Origin: Eledone cirrhosa
Lineage: Eukaryota
Reading direction: 5' to 3'
NCBI GenBank assembly: GCA_964016885.1
Contig: OZ024749.1
Span: forward strand, 19,716,001-19,780,000
Length of the DNA: 64,000 nt
Shown: piece after piece, positions 48,625-64,000 of the stretch
How the letters are laid out: each line of letters begins with the position of its first letter
Position numbering within the stretch: position 1 is the first letter of the stretch
Notes under the pieces: generated by a model
The model's input: only the letters and a program-made list of their open reading frames with translations
The model's database searches: none
Told to the model about the DNA's origin: nothing
Position numbers and translations under genes: made by a program

Positions 48625-48741
48625 TATACACTGTTAACGACTATATTTACACTGTTAATGACTATATTTACACCGTCTTCACACTGTCAATGACTATATT
48701 TATGCTATCCTCACACTATTAATGGCAATATTAACACTTAA

Positions 48742-48951
48742 CCCTTTAGCATTCACATTACTCTATATATCCTATTATATTTTCATGGTAAAGACTTTCC
48801 CTCGCATAATTATCTCACATAATATCGAATCTATGAGATTTTGAAAGTATTTATTTTGAGAACAATACCTTGACATCAGTATGAGTGGCCAGTTACAGCC
48901 AATTTCAACAGAAAGAGGTAGAGAATTTTGGCCGGTTTGAACATTAAAGAG
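48742..48951 (+). mobile_element. piggyBac-type non-autonomous MITE, copy 1 (~210 bp)
   Basis: ttaa|CCCTTTAGCATT...ACATTAAAGAG|ttaa. TTAA flanks and CCC/GGG-type termini; internal sequence shared with five other copies in the window. Confidence 0.8.
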
Positions 48952-49317
48952 TTAATGAATATATTTGCACTGTATACACACTGTTAATGACTATATGAAC
49001 ACTGTCTATACACTGTTAATTAATATATTTACACTGCCTATACACTGTTAATTAATATATTTACACTGTCTATACACTGTTAATTAATATATTTACACTG
49101 TTAATTAATACTTTAACGCTGTCTACACACTGTTAATACTTCAACACTGTATATTGTTAATGATTACTTTAACACTGTCTACACAGTATTAATGACTATA
49201 TTTACACTGTCTACATGCTGTTTATATATTAACACACACACACAATGTTTATGTATTAATACTGTCTACACACTATATTTATATATTAACACTCCCTACC
49301 CACTGTTAATACTTCAA

Positions 49318-49533
49318 CCTTTAGCATTTAAACCGGCCATATCAGGCCAGAATTCTCCCACCTCTTTTTGTTCGAACCAGCTGTAACTGGCTACTCATAC
49401 TGATGGTAAGGTATTGTTCTCAAAATAAATATCGAAATCTCATAGACTCGATATTATGGGAGATAATTATGTAAGTAATTTTACCACAAAAATACATTAG
49501 TATATATAAAGAGTAATGTAAATGCTAATGTTG
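49318..49533 (-). mobile_element. Same MITE family, copy 2, inverted orientation
   Basis: Starts CCTTTAGCATTTAAACCGGCC (reverse complement of the family right end); internal GTATTGTTCTCAAAATAAAT and TCTCATAGA are reverse complements of copy 1 motifs. Confidence 0.8.
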
Positions 49534-49830
49534 TTAACACTATCTATGCACTGTTAATCAATACATTAACACTGTCTATACACTATTAATCAATACATTA
49601 ACACTGTCTATACACTGTTAATCAATACATTAACACTGTCTATACACTGTCAATCAATACTTTAACACTGTCTACGCACTGTTAGCCAATACATTAACAC
49701 TGTCTATACACTGTTAATCAATACTTCAACACTGTCGGTACACTGTTAACCAACACATTAACACTGTCTGTACACTGTTAATCAATACTTTAACACTGTC
49801 TATACACTTTTAATTCAATTCTCCCTACAG

Positions 49831-49957
49831 ACCGTCTTTTACTTCAATGTTCAACGGAAATACTTCGAGAAATCTTTGGATATATTTGCTCAGTTCTTCA
49901 TTTCTCCACTGATGAGAGAGGACAGCGTTAACAGGGAGATAAAAGCTGTGGACAGTG
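49831..49957 (+). CDS. NRDC: Nardilysin-like exon A (127 nt), TVFYFNVQRK...REIKAVDS
   Basis: Acceptor ttctccctacag|ACC; donor AGTG|gtgagt; phase 0 to 1. Confidence 0.93.
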
Positions 49958-52900
49958 GTGAGTCTTACCTTGTGGTGGTGGTGTGGTGGTGGTGGTGGTG
50001 GTGTGGCTGTGGTGGTGTGGCTGTGGTGGTGGTGGTGGTGCTCTGATGAGAGAGGGCAGCGTTAACAGGGAGATAAAAGCTGTGGACGGTGGTGGTCTGG
50101 TGGTGGTGGTGGTGACTGGAAATGGTGGTGTGGTGTAGTATTGTGGGTGATACTGGAGGTGGAGGTGGTGTGGTGTAGTGTAGTATTGTGTGTGACACTG
50201 GAGGTGGTGTGGTGGTGTGGTGTATTGTGGGTGATACTGGAGGTGGTGGTGTGGTGTAGTATTGTGGGTGATACTGGAGGTGGTGTGGTGTAGTATTGTG
50301 GGTGACACTGGAGGTGGTGTGGTGTATTGTGGGTGACACTGGAGGTGGTGTGGTGTTGTATTGTGGGTGATACTGGAGGAGGTGGTGTGGTGTAGTATTG
50401 TGGGTGATACTGGAGGTGGAGGTGGTGGTGTGGTGTAGTATTGTGGGTGATACTGGAGGAGGTGGTGTGGTGTAGTATTGTGGGTGACTCTGGAGGTGGT
50501 GTGGTGTAGTGTTGTGGGTGACACTGGAGGAGGTGGTGTGGTGTAGTATTATGGGTGACACTAGAGATCATTATATGAAAAACACTGTACAGACAACAAG
50601 AAAACCAATAACAAGATTCGCCAAATATAGAAAAGACATTTATCATATGTACTACATAGTCAGTGATGCTAGCCACCACATCACATGTCAATCTATTGTG
50701 TTATGTAATATTTATGTATGTGTTTGTTTTATCCAGAATTTGAGGAAGGAGTCCCAGCTCATCTGTTGGCCTACCTCTGTACTACATAGCCAGTGATGCT
50801 AGCCACCACATCACATGTCAACCTATTGTGTTATGTAATATTTATGTATGTGTTTGTTTTATCCAGAATTTGAGGAAGGAGTCCCAGATGATGACAACAG
50901 AGCAGCTCGTCTGTTGGCCAACCTCTGTACACTTGGTCATCCTATTGGAAACTTTATTGAAGGTAAGTTGTTGCTACTACTATTATTGCTACTACTACTA
51001 CTACTGCTACTACTACTACTTCTGCTACTACTACTACTACTACTACTGCTGCTGCTACTACTGCTGCTACGACTACTGCTACTACTGCTGCTACTACTAC
51101 TGCTACTACTGCTACTGCTGCTGCTGCTACTACTACTACTATTACTACTACTACTACTTTCATCAACTTCTAACAGTTTTTAGGACAACTTCAAATTAAA
51201 ACCTCTACTTTTTCAAACCTTGGACCCATCCTGCCCAACCATTAACCAAAGCTATAAAATTCCTAGTATGGAAGAAACAAATTTTAGCGATTCGCTGATG
51301 AAAGTCTTTTAACTCTTTAGCATTTACATTACTCTATATTTACTATTGTATTTTTGTGGTAAAAGCTTTACTTCACATAATTATCTCACATAATATGGAA
51401 TCTATGAAATTTTGATGATATTTATTTTGAGAACAATACCTTAACATATGAGCAGCTGGTTACAGCCAGTTTGAGCAGAAAGAAGTGAGAGAATTCTGGC
51501 TGGATATGGCCGGTTTAAATGCTAAAGGGTTAAGTTAGAAAACTTTGAATAAAACACTGTTTTAATTCTTTATACACATTGTTTGGGCTTCCAGTCATAA
51601 ATGTTTTTTTATAATACTTGGATTATTTTCAACACTCTGACGTGTATGTGTATAAGTGTGTGCGTGTGTATACGTGCATATACATACATTTATATGTATA
51701 AGTATATAAATATAAACACATAAACACAGACACACAAAAATACACACTCACAGACATACATATACATTCACACAAATACACATACATTCATATAAACACA
51801 AACACACGCACATACATGGTGTGATGGACAGACAGAAGTTACACAAATTTATATATAGATTGTCAGAATGCTTTCGAAATCTGCTATGAATCTTAATTCA
51901 TATATCTTAATTTAAACTTTTCCCAATTTGAAATATAACCTTGTTTTTTTTTTTCGCATCAAATTTAAATATGTTGTGACAAACAGTTTGGGGGCCACTT
52001 ATATAACCCCATATATGTTTGGTGTAGGGAATTTTTTATCACTTAACACTGACCCCATAATTGTATAAGTGGTGAGGGTGTTGGGCTTACAGTCATAATG
52101 TTGTGGGTTCAATTCCTGGACTGGGTTGTGTGTCTTGTCTGTTCTTGAACTAAACACTTCATTTCACGTCGCTCCAGTATACTCAACTGAAAATGAGTAC
52201 CAGTAATATCTGGGAGTTTAACCCTGCGATGAACTGATGTCCTGTCCAGGTGGCGGGAAGTCTTGTATTATGTCGCTTCATGTCACAAAAACTGGAATAA
52301 GCACCAGGCCTGATGAACCTCTGGGCTCAAAACCAGACTTTAATACTGCGATGGACTGACATCCCGTCCAGGGGGGAGTCTTAAACTCTGTCGCTTCATG
52401 CCACAGAAACTGGAATAAGCACCAGACTGTTTAGCCTCTCGGCTCAAGACAGACTTTTGACTTATAGACATAATTAGGGTCCACTGATTTAACCCCATAT
52501 ATGTTTGGTTGTAGGTAATTTTATACCATTTCTCACTGACCCCAAAATTAAGAGTCGCTGATCTAACCCCATATATGTTTGGTTGTAGGTAATTTTATAC
52601 CATTTCTCACTGACCCCAAAATTAAGGGTCACTGATCTAACCCCATATATGTTTGGTTGTAGGTAATTTTATATCACTTTACATTGACCCCGAAATTAGG
52701 GACCACTGATCTAACTCCATATATGTTTGGTTGTAGGTAATTTTATATAATTTCTCACTGACCCCAAGATTAAGAGTCACTGATCTAACCCCAAATATGT
52801 TTGGTTGTAGGTAATTTTATACCATTTCTCACTGACCCCAAAATTAAGGGACACTGATCTAACCCCATATATGTTTGGTTGTAGGTAATTTTATACCATT

Positions 52901-55900
52901 TCTCACTGACCCCAAAATTAAGGGTCACTGATCTAACCCCATATATGTTTGGTTGTAGGTAACTTTATATCACTTTACATTGACCCCAAAATTAGGAACC
53001 ACTGATCTAACCCCATATATGTTTGGTTGTAGGTAATTTTATATCACTTTACACTGACCCCTTAAAAAGCAACATTGATGTGTACAGTCGGTTAAAGAAG
53101 TTTCACAAGAAGATGTATTCAGCCCATTTTATGACCCTTGCTGTCCAGTCAAAAGGTAAGTTGATCAATTGCTGTATCTTCTGGTAGATTAGTCACACCT
53201 CTATTTTACATATGTACATGTATAGTGTACCATATATTTTGAATTGGTGTTTTATAGGGGTGACATATCACATATACTCATGTATAAGTCATACATACAT
53301 TTATAGAGTACTATATATTTTGAATTGAAATTTTATAAGGGTGACATATCATACTTACTCGTGTATAAGTCGCAGCTCTATTATACATACATTTATAGGG
53401 GTGACATATCATATATACTTGTGTATAAGTCATATCTCTATTATATATACATTTATAGTGTACTATATATTTTTAATTGAGCTTTTGTAGGAGTGAGTTA
53501 CTATATATTTTCATGTGACTTGTAGATAAGATACCTATTTGACATACATATATTTACAATGTACCATATATTTTGAATTGAGGTTTTGTAGGAGTAATTT
53601 ACCATATATATACAATAAGTCACACCTCTTTTACATATATTTATAATGTACCGTATCTAAACAGCTACCACATACACTCCTTTCCAAATAGTTCACGTTG
53701 GTGACACACTTTTTAAATATAACATTTTTCATAACATGTTTAATTTTTGTTAGTGACTGAAAAAAATAAACAATGAATAAATAACTAATTAAGGGTTGAA
53801 CTGGTGTTTGGAACATAGCTTAACAAAACTTATTACATAAAGGGTTGAGCTGGTGTTTGGAACAGCTTAACATAGGTTATTACATAAAAATCACAAGGGG
53901 AACGTTTTTAGCTTAAAATAAGCAGTTTTATATTGTATAACCAAGGGTAGCTTCTGGCAGTTTAGCATCAAAAGGGTTGAGCTAGTGTTTGGGACAAAGG
54001 TTCTTACATAAAATAAACAGTTTTGTATCATAGGACCATGGGTTCTTTCAGGCCATTTAGTATCATAAGGATCAATAGATGTAAGCTCCAACAGATCTAA
54101 GCTCCGACAGATCTAAGCTCCAACAGATGTAAACTCTGACAGATGTACACTCCTACAGATGTACACTCTGACAGATGTAAGCTCCTACAGATGTACGCTC
54201 CCACAGATGTAAGCTCCGACAGATGTAAACTCCGACAGATGTAAACTCCGACAGATGTATACTCCGACAGATGTATACTCCGACAGATGTACATTTCAAC
54301 AGATGTAAAGTTGATGTCTAAAATTCTTCTTATGTGTTACCGACTTTCTCTTTGGTTTTCAGAAACACTCGATGTTCTTGAGGAATGGGTCAAGGAAATA
54401 TTCTCCCATATTCCAAATAAGTAAGGAATTTAACATTATATATGCTTCATCATTTATGTCTATTTTCTATGTTGGCATGGGTTGGACAGGTTGTCATGCT
54501 CCAAGTCACTTCATATTTGATTTTACTGTACTCTTTGGTTAGAAGACCACATCATGCTCAATATGTTATGCATTTTTGTTGTGGTTTCTACAGCTGGATG
54601 CCCTTCATATCATCAACCACTTTACAGAGTGTATATGGTGCAGTTTATTGTGGCACCAGTACTAGGGAGCTGGTTATGCCCTCGGCAGGACAAAAGAGTT
54701 TATTTGAATTTATGTTGTCTTCACTCATTTGCTAACCTTTTTATAGAATATACTGGGTGCAATTTGTTGTGGCACCAGCACTAGGGAGATTGTCATATCC
54801 CCAGCAGGACAAAACAGTTCTTTTGAATGTTTGTTGTCTTTACTCGTTTGCCAACCACTTTACAGAGTGTACTGTGTGCATTTTGTTGTGGTGCCAGCAC
54901 TAGGGTGGCTGTCATGTCTTCAGCAAGACAACAGAGTTCTTTCAACCATATATTATCTTCACTCATTTGCCAACCACTTTACAGAGTGTACTGGGTGTAT
55001 TTTGTCATGAAACTAACACTTGTGAGGTTATGTTCTCCTCAACAGGACAAAAGAGTTCTCTTGGTCCCCACCTTGTTTCTGTTTGATCCCTAAACATTTC
55101 ATACCATTTCATACCTTACCATAGTGACCACCACTAATGAAGGGATCTTTCCTGTTTTTTCAGCAAGGAAGCCAAACCAACATTCACTTCTGAACCAGTA
55201 AGGTTTTACATTTTATTTTGTTGCGTTTTAAATGTTATTCTTGACTCCTCATTTGTGTATGTTGTTGTGTTGCTAATGTGTTGTGTGTATATTGTGTTGT
55301 GTGTATGTTGTGTTGTGTTGTGTTATGTTGTTAATGTGTTGTGTTGTTAATGTGTTGTATATTGTATTGTGTTGTTAATGTGTTGTGTGTTGTGTTGCAT
55401 GTTGTGATGTGTTGTGTTATATGCTGTATTGTGTGCATTGTTAGCATGTTGTACATTATGTTGTTATTGTGTTATCAGTATGTGATGTGTTGTCAGTGTT
55501 TAAACCCTGTCACAATCCACAGCTGTTGTGAATCGGTTGGTTGTATGTTGTTAGTATGTTACTTGTTGTGTAACATTAGTGTGTTGTGTGTTTTCAGCAT
55601 ATGTTGACCCTGTTGTCAATGTACGTTGATAGTGTTGACCCTGTTGTGTGTATATAACAGTTTTGTGTATATAACACTGTTGTGTGTATATAACCTCGTT
55701 TTATGTATATAACACTGCTGTGTGTATATAACACTGTTGTGTGTATATAACCCCGTTTTGTGTATATAACCTTGTTGTGTGTATATAACCCGGTTTTGTG
55801 TATATAACACTGTTGTGTGTATATAACCCGGTTTTGTGTATATAACCCCGTTTTGTGTATACAACCCTGTTGTGTGTATATAACCTTGTTGTGTGTATAT

Positions 55901-58900
55901 ATAAATATATTCTAATGGTAAACACTAATCATCTTCATTTTACTGAAATTGTCATGTTTTGTCATAGACACTTAACTTCTGAGGGATTCATAGGGGCAGC
56001 ATTTTAAACCAGGCAGAACCCATTCCTTCTCCAGGCCTAAACACAGCCGATTTCTTCCAGAGCAGGAGAGAGGAAGTGAGAAAAAAGATATAGAAGAACA
56101 ACTAATGCCAGTATTTGACTTGCACTTATTTAACCCTTTACCATTCACATTACTCTATATATACTATTATATTTTCACAGTAAAGGCTTTATCTCACATA
56201 ATATTGAATCTGAGATTTTGATATTGTTTATTTTGAGAATAATACTTTAACAACAGTATAAAAGCACCCAGCACTCACTCTAAATGAGGTTGGTGTTAGG
56301 AAGGGCATCCAGCTGTAGAAATCAAGCCAAAATCAGTTCCTGTATGAGCAAGACAAGGTCAGCCGACTGGACACTGCTCACAACAGGACAACCCATCTAA
56401 CCCATGCTAGCGTGGAAGAACGGATGTAAAACGGTGAGGATGATGATGATGTTGATGATAAGCAGCCGGTTACAGCTGGTTTGAACAGAAAGTGGTGAGA
56501 GAATTCTGGCCGGATACAGCCGGTTTAAATGCCAAAGGGTTATGGCTAAGTTGACTTCAGCAAGGTTTGAACACAGATCCCAGAGAGTCGGTACAAATAC
56601 AGACCAGAAAGTATTCTATCTGACATTCTAAAGACTCTACCAATTCTTCATCATTACTGAAACTATTCTGTTATTTTACAATAGTTATAGAATCTATTTC
56701 TGTTACTTTTGTTTTTTGTATCTTTTACTTCAAGCTGTGCAATTATTTTTTTTATTTTTTCTTTCTTTTTCCAGTGTCCATTTGACACGCCAGAATTTGC
56801 CAAGTTTTATCGAGGTAACTGTATAGTACTTGGGCGCATACACACACACACACACATATATACATACATGCGTGCATATATATATATATATACATACACA
56901 CACACACACATATATACATACATGCACGAACATATATATATATATATACATGCACACACATATATATACATGCACACATATATATATTTATATATACAGA
57001 CATACACACACATATACATCCATCCATGTATTTATATGTATATATATACACATGCGCACATACATATCTATATATGTCTCTTTCTCCATGTATGTAGATA
57101 TATATATACACACACACATATCCTATCGAGTAGTTGGTGATATGAAGGGCATCTCCAGTCTAAGAAAACCTGTCAAACAAAGGGTCAGAATCTTTCTAGT
57201 ATTGATATCGTGATGTATCACACCCAGTACTCTTTTTAAAGGAAGGGCGTCCAACCATAGAAAACTTGCCTAACAAAGAGTCAAGAGGATCCGTCAGTAG
57301 TGTCAAAGAAACAACAACATCCCTAATGCTGGTGTCAAAATAAAAAGCACCCACTACACTCTGTAGATTGCAGGATCATATGTAACGAGATGTGGGGCCC
57401 TGCCTGACTGAGAAATCAATAGTTCTGATTTGGTTTTTGGTTGGTATCCAGTCCATCCCATGATAGCAGGGGAAATGGGCACATCATCATCATCATCATT
57501 TTACGTCCGCTTTCCGCTGCTTGCAAGGGTGGGATGGGAACTGATTCTGGCTTGATTTCTACAGCTGGATGCCCTTCCTAACACCAACCTCATGTACAAT
57601 GAGTGGTGAGAGCTTTTTTTTTTTTTTTTCGTGGCGCCTACACGTCCACTTTACAGTGTGGGCTGGGTGGTTTTTTGCTGTGGCACCTCCACGACCACTT
57701 TGTAGTGGAATGATAGGGACCCCAGTCCTATCATCTCATTTCTACAGCTGAGTAAACTGGAGAAATGTGAAATAAAGTGTCTTGCTCAAGCAAATAACAT
57801 ATCACCTGGTCTGAGAATTGAACTCACAACCTTTCGATTGCAAGGCCAATGCTTTAACCACTAAGCCATGTACCTCCACACACTTTTATAATCAGCCTCA
57901 CACACACACACATATATAATTAGCTTCACACACACTCATATATAATTAGCTGCACCAACATGCACACATTCACACGCATACAAACATATAATAAGCCTCA
58001 CACACACACACACATATATAATTAGCTGCACCCACATACACACACACAAATATATAATATACCTCGCACACACACACACACACAAATATAATAATGCCCC
58101 CCCCCACACACACACACACTCATACAATTAGCTTCACATGCACACACTCGTATAGTTAGCCACATAAATACTCATATAATTAGACTCACACACTCATATA
58201 AATAATCTCACACACACACACAAATAATAACACACTACCAACCATAAAATATATCTGTCTGTGTGTCATTTCAGTTGTATCAGTGAAAGACACCCATAAA
58301 GTTTCATTGAACTGGGCTCTGACTCCACTACAGAAACATTACCAGTGAGTATCAGTTACCTCCCATTCCTGTCTGTCTGTCTGTCTTCATTACATAAACA
58401 TTACCAGTGAGTATCAGTTTCCGCCCTTTCCTGTCTGCCTTCACTACATAAACATTACCAGTGAGTATCAGTTACCTCCCTTTCTTGTCTGTCTGTCTTT
58501 ACTTCATAAACATTACCAGTGATTATCAGTTACCTCCCTTTCCTGTCTGTCTTCACTACATAAACATTACCAGTGAGTATTAGTTACCTCCCTTGCTTGT
58601 CTGTCTGTCTTCACTACATAAGCATTACCAGTGAGTATCAGTTACTCCCTTTCTTGTCTGTCTGTCTTCACTTCATAAACATTACCAGTGAGTATCAGTT
58701 ACCTCCCTTTCTAGTCTGTCTGTCTGTCTTCACTACATAAACATTATCAGTGAGTATCAGTTACTTCCCTTCCCTGTCTGTCACAAATTCTTATTGTAGA
58801 TCCACAGTGGACAATTCTTGCCATCACCCACTGTCACACTGCATAATGTCACATGTCACATTCCTCCATACCACATCACGTCACATGTCTCACCAGTGTC

Positions 58901-61132
58901 ACACCACACAATGTAACATCATTTCACAGTACTGTATCACACCACACCATATCACATCATGTCACACCACACAATGTAACATCTTTTCACAGTACTGTGT
59001 CACACCATGTCTCACCACTGTGTTACACCACTCAATGTCACCTGTCACATTCCTCCACACCACACCATGTCTCACCACTGTGTCACTACACGTCACACCC
59101 CTCAGTAACTCACTCTCTCTGTTTATAGGTCGAAGCCGTTAGATTATCTTGCTATCCTATTCTTACATGAAGGTGCTGGGAGTATTCTTTCTTATTTGAA
59201 GAAACGGTAAGTCACTTTGTTTTTTTTTTATTGTTTTCTTTTGATGCTTTTTAAAAAATATATATATATATCATCATCATCATCCACATAATGCTGTCTC
59301 TTGTACCTTCACTACTTAAAGTTTCACTCTATAGATGTTTCATTAAGTAATCTATACATTTGTTGAGCAGAGGTCCCCAACCACCGGGCTGCTGACCGGT
59401 ACCGGTCCGTGGATCATTTGCTACTGGGCCGCAAAGAAATAATTAACTTGTTTAAAATTATATAATAGATAAATTGAATATTGGACTTTAATTTAAAAAA
59501 GATTTGTTTAAATATTCAATATTCATCTACTTTAATAATTTGTTATTTTTATTATTACTCTCTTTATTAAAATGCACATAAAGATTGTCTGGCATGAAGC
59601 CGGTCCATGGTATAAAAAAGTTTGGAGACCACTGTTGTAAAGCATAATTTTCAATGTATACACAGGGCAGACATGGATTCCGTGAGCCATAAGGAAGGCA
59701 GCTCGTCTAGGAAGGCAGTGACACTGATTAAAATCTGATATAGAATGGAGAGGACTCTTGAGTCCAGTAAGACAACTTCTTAAGTGCTGCTGGCACAAAT
59801 AATGCATCCAGTCCATGCTGTAAAATGTCTTCTGTCCCCTAACCCATAATTTATTCAGTTTTATGTGACATTGAATACACAACACTTTCCGCTGGGATGA
59901 GATGCTAGTCTGTTGCAGGGCTATGCTCCAGCTTCTGTTGCTATTTATTTTCAGCTGAGTAAACCTCTGGGTGTAATGTGAAATAAAACATTTTTCTCAT
60001 TCAGCCTGGGTATCAAACCCTCAACCTTATGATCATAAGCTACACACACTAGCCATGAGGCAACATGACTTCAGAACACTTATTTGATTTAATGCATATA
60101 TAAATGCAAAAACTCGCCACTAGAACAGCTGTTAAACAGCTAAATGATTTCAAAGACAGCGATGGGCAAAAATGTCTCAGATAACTGGCCAGTGGTCAAC
60201 AGAGAGACAATCCACAAGGTGGGCGACAAACAGGCGAAATATAGAAAACTTTGAAAGAGGAGGTGGATCAATCAAATACACTCTTGCTTCGTCTCAATCA
60301 GAGACAACATTGTTTTAACTTATTAGATATTTTACCCCTTTAGTATTTTCATTACTCTATATTTACTATTGTATTTTCGTAGTAAAGGTTTTATCTCACA
60401 TAATTATTTCACATAATATCGAATCTATGAGATTTTGATATTATTTATTTTGAGAACAAAACCTTAACGTCAGTATGAGTGGCTGCTTATGGTTGGTGTG
60501 AGAATTCTGGCCAGATATAGCCGGTTTAAATGCTAAAGGGTTAATTTGAACACAGGTGATACAGAAGCCTCACAGTGCTCTTCAAAATTCGCAATAACTC
60601 TCTTGAAAAGGGATATATTATCCGAAATATATCAGGAATGATAAAGTAACAATCTCTCATTTCTCATTTTCCTTCCCACTTGGTCATTCTTTCACATATC
60701 TTCATCTGTCTTACCTGACTTTGTTCCCTCAATATTTACAACCCCATCTGAATTATAGCAGCTTCCTGAACATGCCCACATTTTAACTCTTTAGCATTCA
60801 CATTATTTTATATATACTATTATATTTTAATGGTAAAGGCTTTACCTCACATAATATCGAATCTATGAGATTTTGAAAGTATTTATTTTGAGAACAATAC
60901 CTTAACATCAGTTTGAGCAACCTGTTACAGCCAGTTTCAACAGAAAGAGGTAGAGAATTCTGGCCGGTTTGAACACTGAAGGGTTAAATAAAACTTATCA
61001 ATCTTTTTTAGGATGTGGGCCCTGCACATTGAAGGGGGAAATGCTACAAGTGGGTTTGAGTTCAACTCTGTGTGGTCGTGTTTCTACATTGACATATTTC
61101 TCACCGATTCAGGAGTTAACCACATTTACGAG
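49831..61132 (+). CDS. NRDC: Nardilysin-like M16A metallopeptidase, internal 9-exon fragment (gene incomplete at both ends)
   Basis: Spliced translation: TVFYFNVQRKYFEKSLDIFAQFFISPLMREDSVNREIKAVDSEFEEGVPDDDNRAARLLANLCTLGHPIGNFIEGNFISLYTDPLKSNIDVYSRLKKFHKKMYSAHFMTLAVQSKETLDVLEEWVKEIFSHIPNNKEAKPTFTSEPCPFDTPEFAKFYRVVSVKDTHKVSLNWALTPLQKHYQSKPLDYLAILFLHEGAGSILSYLKKRMWALHIEGGNATSGFEFNSVWSCFYIDIFLTDSGVNHIYE. Collinear with nardilysin as I recall it (VQRKYF, AQFFI.PLM, AVDSE, MTL.VQSKETLD, PFDTP.F, WAL...GGN..GFE.NS). All introns GT-AG with matching phases. Confidence 0.92.
49969..50563. repeat. (GGT)n low-complexity tract plus ~35-45-bp GT-rich minisatellite (GGTGGTGTGGTGTAGTATTGTGGGTGATACTGGA)
   Basis: About 11 units from ~50123 to 50563; source of the spurious His/Thr/Pro-rich minus-strand ORFs. 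Confidence 0.9.
50043..50094 (+). repeat. Intronic copy of the 3' end of exon A
   Basis: 50043-50087 equals 49909-49953 with one substitution; the following donor GTGAGT is replaced by GTGGTC. Confidence 0.9.
50648..50930 (+). repeat. 130-bp-period tandem duplication spanning the exon B acceptor
   Basis: TGTACTACATAG...TTTTATCCAG|AATTTGAGGAAGGAGTCCCAG starts at 50648 and again at 50778. Confidence 0.92.
50867..50962 (+). CDS. NRDC: Nardilysin-like exon B (96 nt), EFEEGVPDDD...GHPIGNFIE
   Basis: Acceptor ttttatccag|AAT; donor GAAG|gtaagt. Completes the AVDSE Glu codon (G|AA), the position of the third zinc ligand in M16A enzymes. Confidence 0.92.
50973..51157. repeat. (CTA)/(CTG) trinucleotide microsatellite
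   Basis: Directly visible, starting ~10 nt after the exon B donor. Confidence 0.95.
51313..51529 (+). mobile_element. Same MITE family, copy 3
   Basis: ttaa|CTCTTTAGCATTTA...TAAATGCTAAAGGG|ttaa; clear TIR and TTAA duplication. Confidence 0.85.
52063..52468 (+). mobile_element. tRNA-derived CORE-type SINE with duplicated 3' segment, flanked by a 7-bp TSD (CATAATT)
   Basis: A-box-like TATAAGTGGT, B-box GGTTCAATTCC, CORE-like TTCTTGAACTAAACACTTCATTTCAC. ~122-bp segment starting CTGCGATG at 52224 and 52346. CATAATT at 52056-52062 and 52469-52475. Confidence 0.78.
52476..53061 (+). repeat. 8 x 74-bp tandem array containing the branch point, acceptor and first ~29 nt of exon C (a ninth diverged copy lies at 51991-52062)
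   Basis: TTGTAG ends at 52514, 52588, 52662, 52736, 52810, 52884, 52958 and 53032 (exact 74-bp spacing); only the last copy continues into coding sequence. Confidence 0.95.
53033..53155 (+). CDS. NRDC: Nardilysin-like exon C (123 nt), GNFISLYTDP...MTLAVQSK
   Basis: Acceptor tttggttgtag|GTAATT with branch-like CTAAC at 53007-53011; donor AAAG|gtaagt; phase 1 to 1. Confidence 0.92.
53190..53665. repeat. Degenerate AT-rich tandem repeat after the exon C donor
   Basis: Recurrent TAGTGTACCATATATTTTGAATTG, GGGTGACATATCA and TGTATAAGTC motifs, 4-5 irregular units. Confidence 0.65.
54077..54309. repeat. 16-bp minisatellite (AGATGTAAGCTCCGAC), ~14 copies
   Basis: Directly visible; ends ~50 nt before the exon D acceptor. 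Confidence 0.92.
54363..54420 (+). CDS. NRDC: Nardilysin-like exon D (58 nt), ETLDVLEEWVKEIFSHIPN
   Basis: Acceptor ggttttcag|AAA; donor ATAA|gtaagg; phase 1 to 2. Confidence 0.92.
54586..55061 (-). repeat. ~119-bp tandem repeat (4 copies) derived from a SINE internal segment
   Basis: Units start AACC(AC)TTT at ~54614, 54734, 54853 and 54972; preceded by TTCTACAGCTGGATGCCCTTC, also present in the SINE at ~57556. Confidence 0.75.
55164..55197 (+). CDS. NRDC: Nardilysin-like exon E (34 nt), NKEAKPTFTSEP
   Basis: Acceptor cctgttttttcag|C; donor CCA|gtaagg; phase 2 to 0, exactly the phases needed to bridge exons D and F. Confidence 0.82.
55254..55900. repeat. (TGTTG)-type low-complexity tract followed by a 19-bp minisatellite (ACCCTGTTGTGTGTATATA)
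   Basis: Directly visible; 19-bp units from ~55638 to 55900. Confidence 0.88.
56134..56539 (+). mobile_element. Same MITE family, copy 4, split by a SINE fragment
   Basis: ttaa|CCCTTTACCATT... left half to ~56259; right half resumes ~56460 and ends AATGCCAAAGGG. Confidence 0.8.
56260..56459 (+). mobile_element. 5'-truncated SINE with (GAT)n tail nested in MITE copy 4
   Basis: AAAAGCACCC...GGTGTTAGGAAGGGCATCCAGCTGTAGAAA...GATGATGATGAT; matches the reverse complement of 57483-57690. Confidence 0.75.
56775..56814 (+). CDS. NRDC: Nardilysin-like exon F (40 nt), CPFDTPEFAKFYR
   Basis: Long polypyrimidine tract then ccag|TGT; donor CGAG|gtaact; PFDTP.F.K.YR is nardilysin-like. Confidence 0.9.
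56838..57120. repeat. Compound (CA)/(TA) microsatellite
   Basis: Directly visible. Confidence 0.95.
57483..57877 (-). mobile_element. Near full-length tRNA/CORE-type SINE with (GAT)n tail
   Basis: Minus strand reads GGAGGTACATGGCTTAGTGGTTAAAGCATTGG (A box)...GAGTTCAATTCTC (B box)...CORE-like block...GGAAGGGCATCCAGCTGTAGAAA...(GAT)n; head highly similar to 63810-64000. Confidence 0.82.
58275..58344 (+). CDS. NRDC: Nardilysin-like exon G (70 nt), VVSVKDTHKVSLNWALTPLQKHY
   Basis: Acceptor catttcag|TT; donor ACCA|gtgagt; phase 1 to 2. Confidence 0.9.
58326..58782 (+). repeat. 8 x ~54-62-bp tandem array containing the last ~19 nt of exon G and its donor site
   Basis: Donor-like GT at 58345 (real), 58407, 58461, 58519, 58573, 58631, 58688 and 58750; length varies in a (TGTC)n run. 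Confidence 0.95.
58820..59105. repeat. CA-rich degenerate repeat (TGTCACACCAC motif) before the exon H acceptor
   Basis: Recurrent TGTCAC/CACCAC blocks with internal duplications. Confidence 0.75.
59129..59206 (+). CDS. NRDC: Nardilysin-like exon H (78 nt), QSKPLDYLAILFLHEGAGSILSYLKK
   Basis: Acceptor ctgtttatag|G; donor AACG|gtaagt; carries the M16A HEG.GS motif. Confidence 0.92.
59368..59634 (+). mobile_element. hAT (Charlie-like) non-autonomous element
   Basis: TIRs CAGAGGTCCCCAA...TTGGAGACCACTG; flanking 8-mers TTGTTGAG and TTGTAAAG (6/8 identical), consistent with a decayed 8-bp TSD. Confidence 0.78.
59890..60065 (-). mobile_element. Decayed tRNA/CORE-type SINE fragment
   Basis: CAGCTGAGTAAAC...ATGTGAAATAAA and AACCCTCAACCTT resemble 57746-57835; boundaries uncertain. 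Confidence 0.55.
60336..60540 (+). mobile_element. Same MITE family, copy 5
   Basis: CCCTTTAGTATT...AATGCTAAAGGG|ttaa with shared internal sequence. Confidence 0.8.
60787..60983 (+). mobile_element. Same MITE family, copy 6
   Basis: ttaa|CTCTTTAGCATT...ACACTGAAGGG|ttaa; shares the shortened right end (GGCCGGTTTGAACA) with copy 1. Confidence 0.82.
61012..61132 (+). CDS. NRDC: Nardilysin-like exon I (121 nt), RMWALHIEGGN...LTDSGVNHIYE
   Basis: Acceptor tcttttttag|G; donor CGAG|gtgagt; phase 2 to 0. Confidence 0.92.
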
Positions 61133-61136
61133 GTGA

Positions 61137-61164
61137 GTGATGTGTGTCACAGCTTGTAACTGTA

Positions 61165-61213
<49 letters not shown>

Positions 61214-62517
61214 AAGTTGTGTTGCAGGTTGTAACTGTAGTGTGTGTATATATGTGTGTGTGTGTGAAGATATGTTTTGCAGGTTGTAACTGTAGTGTGT
61301 ATATATACGTATATATGTGTGTGTGTGAAGATGTGTCACAGCTTGTAACTAATGTGTGTATATTCATGTGTGTGTGTGTATTGCAGGTTGTAACTGTAGT
61401 GTGTATGTATATATATATGTATATATATATATATATATATAGCAAAAAATTGAACGGGAACAAAACAGAGGCAGTACGAACAAAGGTTTATTAGTTTCAC
61501 GCTCTTGAGAGTGGGGGGGGGGGGGACGTTTCGGGCATAAGCCTTTCTTCAGGTGAAAAGTGTGTGGGAAGAGAGTTCCAAGGGTGTGTAGGGGAGTGGT
61601 GGAGAGACATAGAAAAAAGGGGGTGAGAGGAAACGGTACAAATGAAATTAAATATAAAAGCATGATAAAAATAAACATAAAGTAAAACAGGAGGTGGAAG
61701 GGTGTGGGGCGTGTAGGGGTGGTGGAGTGGGGAGAGGGAGGCGGAGTGTCCGAGTGGGGAGGGCTGAAGGTGGTGTGTGTGTGTAGGTGTATGTGTGTGC
61801 GTGTGTATGTGAAAGTAAGAGTTGGGGGAAGAACGGGGTTGCATGTTCAGGAAGAGGTGTGTGTGGAGTGGGGTGTAGGTCGGAGTGTATGTGTGGATGG
61901 GGAGGGGTGGGGGGGAGAGGATTCCGGAGGCTGAGTGTGTAAATATGTGGTGGTACGCACGTGTGTGTGTGTGTGGTGTTTATGCGTGTTGTGGATGTAG
62001 GTGGCGTGGGGGAAAAAAAATTTTTTGAGTGTATGTCAGTGTGTGAGTCCTTAAGGTAGTTCCGTAGAGGATGTGGTGGAATGCTGGGTAATACCCTTGG
62101 GATGTGGTGGATTCTAGGGATCAATGTTCACATATGTGTAATCCGTGAAGAGATTGGTCGGAAGAGGGGAGATGTGGGGTGTGCGCGCAACAGGGAGTGG
62201 TCAGAGGGTCAAGGCAGGAGGAGGGTTGTGTGTCTGTGTGTGCGGGGAGGTGGTCAGAGATAAGGGCATAGCAGCAGTCGGGTAGAATGGTAAGTGAAGA
62301 AAGTCGGTGTGTTAGTGTGTGCGGAGGTGCGGTTGACAGGGGAGAGGATGGGTAGGTGTGAAAGTTGGAGTGAGGAGGGGGTGTGTGTGTATTAGTAGAG
62401 ATGTTAGTGGGATGTGTGTGTGTGTGATATGAGGTTGTAACTAGTAAATGTGTATGTACGTATGTGTATATATGTGTGTGTTGATATGAGGTTGTAACTA
62501 GTAAATGTGTATGTACG

Positions 62518-63308: not shown

Positions 63309-63339
<31 letters not shown>

Positions 63340-63343
<4 letters not shown>

Positions 63344-63470
63344 AAAAGGTATGACCCCGACGGCAGAGCTCAAGCCGTTTTGACGGCTATTTCTGGACTA
63401 AATAGAATTTAGTCCAGAAATAACCGTCGAAACGGCTTGAGCTCTGACATCGGGGTCATACCTTTTCCTA
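63340..63470. repeat. Near-perfect inverted repeat: 64-bp arms, 3-nt loop, 4 mismatches
   Basis: 63340-63403 is the reverse complement of 63407-63470. Confidence 0.95.
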
Positions 63471-63547
63471 TTACCCACTCTACTACGCTAAGTATTGAGT
63501 ACTCTGGTGCGTTATGGTCCATCTGGTTCCTTACCACAATTCCTTGG

Positions 63548-63606
<59 letters not shown>

Positions 63607-63809
63607 CATACAATAATATTAAATAAATGGAAACTATATTTATAAAACCATATTTATTCTATTATATATATTTCAAGGGTACCAAGACATTGGTACAGAT
63701 AAAATACAAAGTGTTTTATAAATTTTGAGATATCCAAGGAAACATACCTTATCAGTTGAATTTTCATTGGATATATAAATTTATATATATCCAACGAAAT
63801 ATATCCAAT

Positions 63810-64000
63810 GGAGGCACATGGCTTAGTGGTTAGAGCATTGGCCTTGCAATCGAAAGGTTGTGAGTTCAATTCTCAGACCGGGTGATGTGTTGTTTCCTTG
63901 AGCAAGGTACTTTATTTCACATTGCTCCAGTTTACTCAGCTGTAGAAATGAGATGATAGGGACTGGGGTCCCTATCATTCCACTGCAAAGTGGTCGTGTA
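63810..64000 (+). mobile_element. tRNA/CORE-type SINE, 5' part, truncated by the window end
   Basis: GGAGGCACATGGCTTAGTGGTTAGAGC (A box), GAGTTCAATTCTC (B box), CCTTGAGCAAGGTACTTTATTTCAC (CORE-like); same family as 57483-57877, opposite orientation. Confidence 0.85.

Follow-up and report, generated by a model that had tools for sequence, protein, structure and literature searches.

Splice junctions copied into the introns of an Eledone cirrhosa nardilysin gene are likely harmless leftovers of tandem duplication

A 64,000-nucleotide stretch of the Eledone cirrhosa genome (assembly GCA_964016885.1, contig OZ024749.1, positions 19,716,001 to 19,780,000 of the forward strand; hereafter the window) contains nine exons of a nardilysin gene, called A to I here, and four of these exons have one of their own splice junctions copied in tandem into the flanking intron. 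The locus raises the question of why so many exon edges should be duplicated in one gene. An earlier note on this DNA had offered two answers: that duplication is biased to exon boundaries, or that it is frequent everywhere and that junction-straddling events survive because one intact exon remains. We consider it probable that four independent short duplications copied exon edges into introns, by slippage at microhomology, and that the copies survived as neutral passengers. The decoy splice sites, a kind of leftover that human genes also contain, are likely to be harmless, and their number is roughly that expected by chance.

When joined at their AG/GT borders on the + strand, the nine exons encode 249 residues, all of which (249/249) align without gaps to residues 216-464 of Octopus vulgaris nardilysin. 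The identity is 219/249 (88%), compared with 88% for O. bimaculoides, 88% for O. sinensis, 85% for Argonauta and 55% for Lingula, in each case to nardilysin. Exon A alone (49831-49957; O. vulgaris residues 216-257; phase-1 donor GTG|GTGAGT) found its best matches, among 6 candidates, in the nardilysins of Octopus vulgaris (93%) and Argonauta hians (90%), and it carries the Pfam domain PF00675 (peptidase M16), above cut-off with an E-value of 4e-8. With both an identity at the level of orthologs and an M16 domain, the gene is, as judged from its sequence, nardilysin (peptidase M16). Nardilysins have an N-terminal zinc-binding motif and an acidic stretch; the residues before 216 lie outside the window. 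A tblastn search found no earlier nardilysin exon upstream of exon A within the 64-kb window, and the intron before exon A would be at least 49.8 kb long.

The four copied junctions are those of exons A, B, C and G, and all the exons, duplications and junction arrays described here are on the + strand. At exon A, a 134-bp tandem duplication (49909-50114, the right end being approximate), with a GTG microsatellite included in the unit, spans the donor. The last 49 nt of the exon are repeated with 2 mismatches at 50043-50091, 134 bp downstream. Behind this copy the donor reads GTGGTC, a decayed form of GTGAGT, and is therefore not an intact splice site. At exon B (50867-50962, bounded by AG/GT and placed by protein alignment), a 148-bp tandem duplication (50648-50930) spans the acceptor, with TGTAC at both breakpoints. 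In the upstream copy the acceptor is kept (decoy at 50736/50737) and 18 nt of the exon are missing between two CAG repeats, with exon sequence on either side of the deletion. Because of this deletion, Tandem Repeats Finder (TRF) gives a period of 130 bp (1.8 copies, 98%) instead of the true 148 bp.

The acceptor of exon C (53033-53155; 123 nt, starting GTAATT) lies within a 74-bp minisatellite of eight units (52469-53061; TRF 8.0 copies, 90%), which provides seven decoy acceptors in addition to the real one. Each unit combines 44-46 nt of intron with ∼28 nt of exon, and the array is sited inside a 2-kb intron. The decoys read TAG|GTAAYT, their exon-like first bases being at 52515, 52589, 52663, 52737, 52811, 52885 and 52959, and in every one of them YTRAY precedes the acceptor by 26 nt. 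No two of the eight units are the same (pairwise 80-99% alike). An orphan unit (51988-52062), 83-90% alike, is found ∼487 bp upstream of the array; its AG is kept and its GT is lost. Each decoy unit can also be folded into a hairpin in which TGACCC at its exon-like end pairs with GGGTCA at the beginning of the next unit, with an energy for one decoy unit of -13.5 kcal/mol versus -8.0 kcal/mol for the real exon start, both values being without a shuffle control.

The donor of exon G (58275-58344; CCA|GTGAGT) is spanned by a ∼58-bp minisatellite, again of eight units (58318-58782; TRF 8.0 copies, 85%). The seven decoy donors follow positions 58406, 58460, 58518, 58572, 58630, 58687 and 58749. 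GT is kept in all seven and GTGAGT in six, and the 9-mer of the real donor is identical in five. The copies have substitutions in common that are not present in the exon. The left breakpoint of the array is TCTG, which is common to the exon and an intronic (TCTG)n run. Each decoy CCA|G also makes a CAG behind a pyrimidine tract, so that the units can be read as small pseudo-exons; by eye, the 57-nt unit at 58461-58518 is in frame and open, and its donor is a weakened GTGATT.

Four of the 18 junctions are thus copied, by units that are of different ages (98% to ∼85% alike) and, as the earlier note had recognized, mutually unrelated. The copies lie where the note had placed them, with some details needing revision: the single copy of the exon A 3′ end does not reach 50094, the one copied exon B acceptor does not have a 130-bp period, and the eight to nine 74-bp copies at exon C are eight units plus the orphan outside the array. 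Exons D (54363-54420), E (55164-55197), F (56775-56814) and H (59129-59206) are without junction copies. At exon I (61012-61132, placed by protein alignment), a 55-bp array (61133-61441) begins at the first intron base. No exon sequence is copied in it and the donor hexamer is not preserved in its copies, making it a near-miss for a fifth case.

Is this number of junction copies above chance? Duplication events were inventoried by hand, giving 12-17 events by region and class for a single gene, which provides little power. Each event was collapsed to one unit and placed uniformly on the collapsed gene, with positions inside or across a whole exon counted as lost. Under 24 such null settings, 1.3-2.6 straddling events are expected and 4 are observed. 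The probability of four or more straddles is 0.03-0.25 and exceeds 0.05 in 20 of the 24 settings, before allowing for the fact that the gene was picked by eye. All four settings with P < 0.05 had transposon-like sequence left in the target; with this sequence removed P becomes 0.06-0.25, the transposon mask being a lower bound from self-BLAST.

The proximity of other repeats to the junctions gives a similar picture. Tandem repeats detected by TRF make up 39% (4124/10555 bases) of the introns from A to I, or 47% with local duplications included. The earlier observation that most remaining junctions have a repeat within ∼60 nt holds as a count, since 10 of 16 intron ends (TRF), or 11 of 16 with local duplications, have a repeat within this distance, straddled ends included. 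It does not hold as an excess: rotating the repeat mask within each intron gave means of 8.7 and 10.0 (P = 0.37 and 0.39). Tandem duplications also occur remote from junctions, at 52214-52457 (122 bp, two copies) and 54614-55063 (119 bp, 3.8 copies, overlapping dispersed-repeat sequence), showing that purely intronic DNA undergoes the same duplication process as the exon edges. A mild excess of straddling is present, and the local repeat load largely explains the unusual density.

Under the explanation that we favour, each duplication would have arisen by replication slippage at a short microhomology, and breakpoint matches are clear for B (TGTAC) and G (TCTG). The C and G duplications would then have grown to eight units through the usual turnover of minisatellites, by slippage or unequal exchange, in the manner of the other arrays of these introns. 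When a tandem duplication spans a single junction, one exon stays whole and the partial copy falls in the intron, so that the event escapes the selection that acts against exonic duplications. The intact exon comes first after a donor-side duplication and last after an acceptor-side one. Frequent duplication with survival of junction-straddling events, the second of the two earlier proposals, fits the evidence.

By analogy with human F7, the exon-adjacent site is likely to be the one in use, the spliceosome probably keeping this copy through exon definition or 5′-to-3′ scanning. If a decoy were used to extend its exon, a premature stop would follow for 15 of the 15 intact decoys (B 1, C 7, G 7); at the G decoys the stop, TGA, sits within the donor itself. 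Rare decoy products would thus presumably be removed by nonsense-mediated decay. The suggestion that the copies supply raw material for new splice sites describes a possibility in principle, but is tempered by these stops. The copies show no consistent preservation of splice signals and no consistent loss of them: the A donor has decayed, the orphan C copy is without GT, and the donor columns of the G array vary like the remainder of the unit (2/9 versus 11/36, P = 0.43). We also considered whether sequence changes pass from the arrays back to the coding exons. This idea was not supported, as the copied exon parts show no enrichment of lineage-specific amino acid changes (3/48 versus 6/161, P = 0.43).

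A number of results weigh against neutral survival as the full account, and these have to be set beside the alternatives. For A and C the breakpoints match at only 2-4 bases. The straddling excess is still 1.6- to 3.2-fold, and in the 16 settings where the exon I array can be admitted as a fifth case, five or more straddles have a probability of 0.005-0.096. Tandem repeats are somewhat denser within 250 nt of exons than elsewhere (0.59 versus 0.45, P = 0.044 by TRF; 0.66 versus 0.54, P = 0.063 with local duplications), and the splice-signal columns of the C array show low variation (1/20 versus 17/72 variable columns overall, hypergeometric P = 0.017; circular shift P = 0.17). The straddling and density results would suit a process in which duplications arise preferentially at exon edges, through transcription- or splicing-coupled breaks, R-loops, or nucleosome or GC boundaries, which we regard as unlikely; that junction copies have gathered faster than intron length predicts is, in our view, equally unlikely. 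The excess fades once transposon-like sequence leaves the target. Old, transposon-poor sequence near exons could mimic the pattern, since transposon-like sequence occupies 3-6% within 120 nt of exons versus 27% beyond 500 nt, although this gradient is itself not significant (P = 0.17-0.21). As the single gene considered was picked for its striking look, a mutational bias cannot be shown from it, and the first of the earlier proposals falls short to that extent.

The low variation in the C array bears instead on whether the decoys are kept for a role in splicing, the C array neutralizing itself recursively or the decoys tuning nardilysin through unproductive splicing; this we find very doubtful. 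Every 74-nt unit of the array reads GTAAYT, then YTRAY at -26, then TAG. Each is thus shaped like a complete mini-intron, and a mis-splice there might be reversed by re-splicing. Joining exon B to any of the eight C acceptors produces AAG|GTAAYT; this agrees with the donor consensus in 8 of 9 positions, compared with 6-9 for the real donors of the gene. An acceptor immediately before sequence that forms a donor after splicing, the arrangement of recursive-splicing exons (RS-exons), is found in 8 of 8 C units, and the donor regenerated at the real exon C junction could skip exon C in frame. Use of the nearest pseudo-sites is described for 6-16 and CBS in the available text of PMC1557585. However, the AG|GTAA motif is set by Glu-Gly-Asn codons common to other octopods, so that selection on the C array is not required, and by the shift test the conservation falls short of significance. 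Hundreds of human exons start with donor-like sequence, and it is the exon junction complex that normally retains them, according to the part of PMC6224609 available. The G array is unable to regenerate a donor, and the loss of GT from the orphan C copy also speaks against such a role. A combined scheme, in which duplication is drawn to exon edges in repeat-rich invertebrate genomes and growth is confined to arrays whose effect splicing can undo, with the C array acting as a natural ratchet of seven back-to-back 74-nt mini-introns removed recursively, seems to us quite improbable. That the arrays are assembly or sequencing stutter is hardly credible. The window is 76% one 32-bp satellite and is hard to assemble, but the copies carry both private and common differences, which argue against stutter: the eight distinct C units, the common substitutions of the G copies, the 18-nt deletion private to the B copy, the decayed A donor and the diverged orphan C copy 487 bp away. 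Of eight sequencing runs considered, none of them listed as RNA, three from one sample share 68-76% of the sampled sequence words; they may be the source of the assembly and give no independent support. Two further runs share small fractions (0.10 and 0.07) and are not evidence, and the other three are RAD runs included by species label.

The earlier note did not know of this arrangement being described as a recurrent architecture. This was wrong. Several human genes, five of them named, are described in the available text of PMC1557585 as containing minisatellites in which the boundary between exon and intron lies within the first monomer: the 37-bp variable number tandem repeat of F7 intron 7, 6-16 (IFI6) with 25 pseudo-sites, CBS intron 13 with 15-20, lamin B2 (LMNB2) with 10-15 units of 100 bp, and PDGF intron 4 with 16-18 units of 81 bp. 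Of the five to nine identical donors in F7, the same text reports use of the most upstream one alone. The nardilysin duplications resemble this case in that the terminal monomer spans the exon-intron boundary in the A, B, C and G units, and in that the splice consensus is repeated in the intron (AG in B 1/1 and C 7/7, GT in G 7/7), the sole A copy having decayed. The copy number is also similar, with 8 in the G array against the 5-9 given for F7. The human cases in that account are donor-side and one per gene, whereas acceptor-side copies are present here too, with four events among nine exons. Both polymorphism and splice use are reported there as established for F7, while the nardilysin arrays are known from the sequence of one assembly.

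For the exon B duplication, the single-copy analogue is human CBS 844ins68. This insertion reportedly duplicates the intron 7/exon 8 acceptor. The available part of PMC1334203 describes a short insertion by which an alternative splice site arises; splicing removes the insert, and most of the mRNA is normal. As presented there, the insertion is polymorphic in humans and rescues a mutation linked to it, whereas the exon B copy carries an internal deletion and is without known effect.

Minisatellite units at exon-intron boundaries also appear as a recurrent class in PMC2812944, the available text of which reports variable internal tandem repeats at such boundaries in human segmental-duplication genes, with 27 intron modifications. 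Those repeats, as far as that text goes, lie in young paralogs and for the most part give rise to new introns or alternative coding isoforms, whereas the gene found here is conserved and has a gap-free frame. The C array further recalls intron gain by AGGT tandem genomic duplication (PMC3443670, in the part available), where duplication of AG|GT gives intron-shaped units. In that model a wholly exonic segment is duplicated to form a new intron, whereas the C unit is mostly intronic and lies inside an existing intron. Intron gain of this type was rejected for the C array on account of its largely intronic units; the ends of the intron between exons B and C have only AG|GTAA in common. Exon C and its copies set an acceptor before donor-like sequence, as do recursive splice sites and RS-exons in the available portions of PMC6224609 and PMC8605326. 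Unlike the RS-exons of PMC6224609, as described there, the exon C motif has been repeated every 74 nt through duplication, and its behaviour is predicted here from sequence alone. A search of the open-access literature found neither a cephalopod report of junction-spanning minisatellites nor a paper joining recursive splicing, tandem duplication and AGGT, and the available text of PMC10078293, PMC9795677 and PMC2427040 brought nothing further to the question.

The locus is thus a dense invertebrate example of junction-spanning minisatellites that have already been described. With decoys of both donor and acceptor type in a single constitutive gene, it is useful as a natural setting in which to test how splice sites are chosen, and it calls for caution when reads are mapped and genes annotated in cephalopods. 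Its weight would be greater if a genome-wide duplication bias at exon edges, or recursive removal of the C array, proved true. Metagenome contigs were also scanned with O. vulgaris nardilysin, giving 197 candidates and 150 confirmed stretches. The best identity among the best 80 of these 150 was at most 46%, so that none of the 80 is a cephalopod locus, and the set was not used.

The remainder of the window is dominated by the 32-bp satellite, which occupies positions 1-48738 directly upstream of exon A, with ∼1,520 units and 95% matches. Unit similarity declines smoothly with distance and no higher-order period is evident. The sense strand contains only 40 AG dinucleotides in its 48.7 kb, and the satellite thus offers almost no acceptors. 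Related units resume at 48951-49819, stopping 11 nt short of the exon A acceptor. A dispersed repeat of ∼220 bp is present in at least 6 copies, 75-87% alike and in both orientations (48740-48955, 49311-49528, 51307-51545, 56129-56542, 60329-60547 and 60780-60996), two of which form an inverted pair flanking a satellite remnant. A second dispersed repeat is found at 57690-57878, 63809-63998 and 52068-52197, two of its copies being 94% alike. An Rfam search found no intronic RNA gene in the window and gave one weak tRNA match (57807-57874, minus strand, 30.7 bits), which lies inside this second repeat; the repeat is likely to be a tRNA-derived short interspersed element. Finally, a near-perfect (92%) inverted repeat of 133 bp at 63339-63471, beside TA runs, resembles a small miniature inverted-repeat transposable element.

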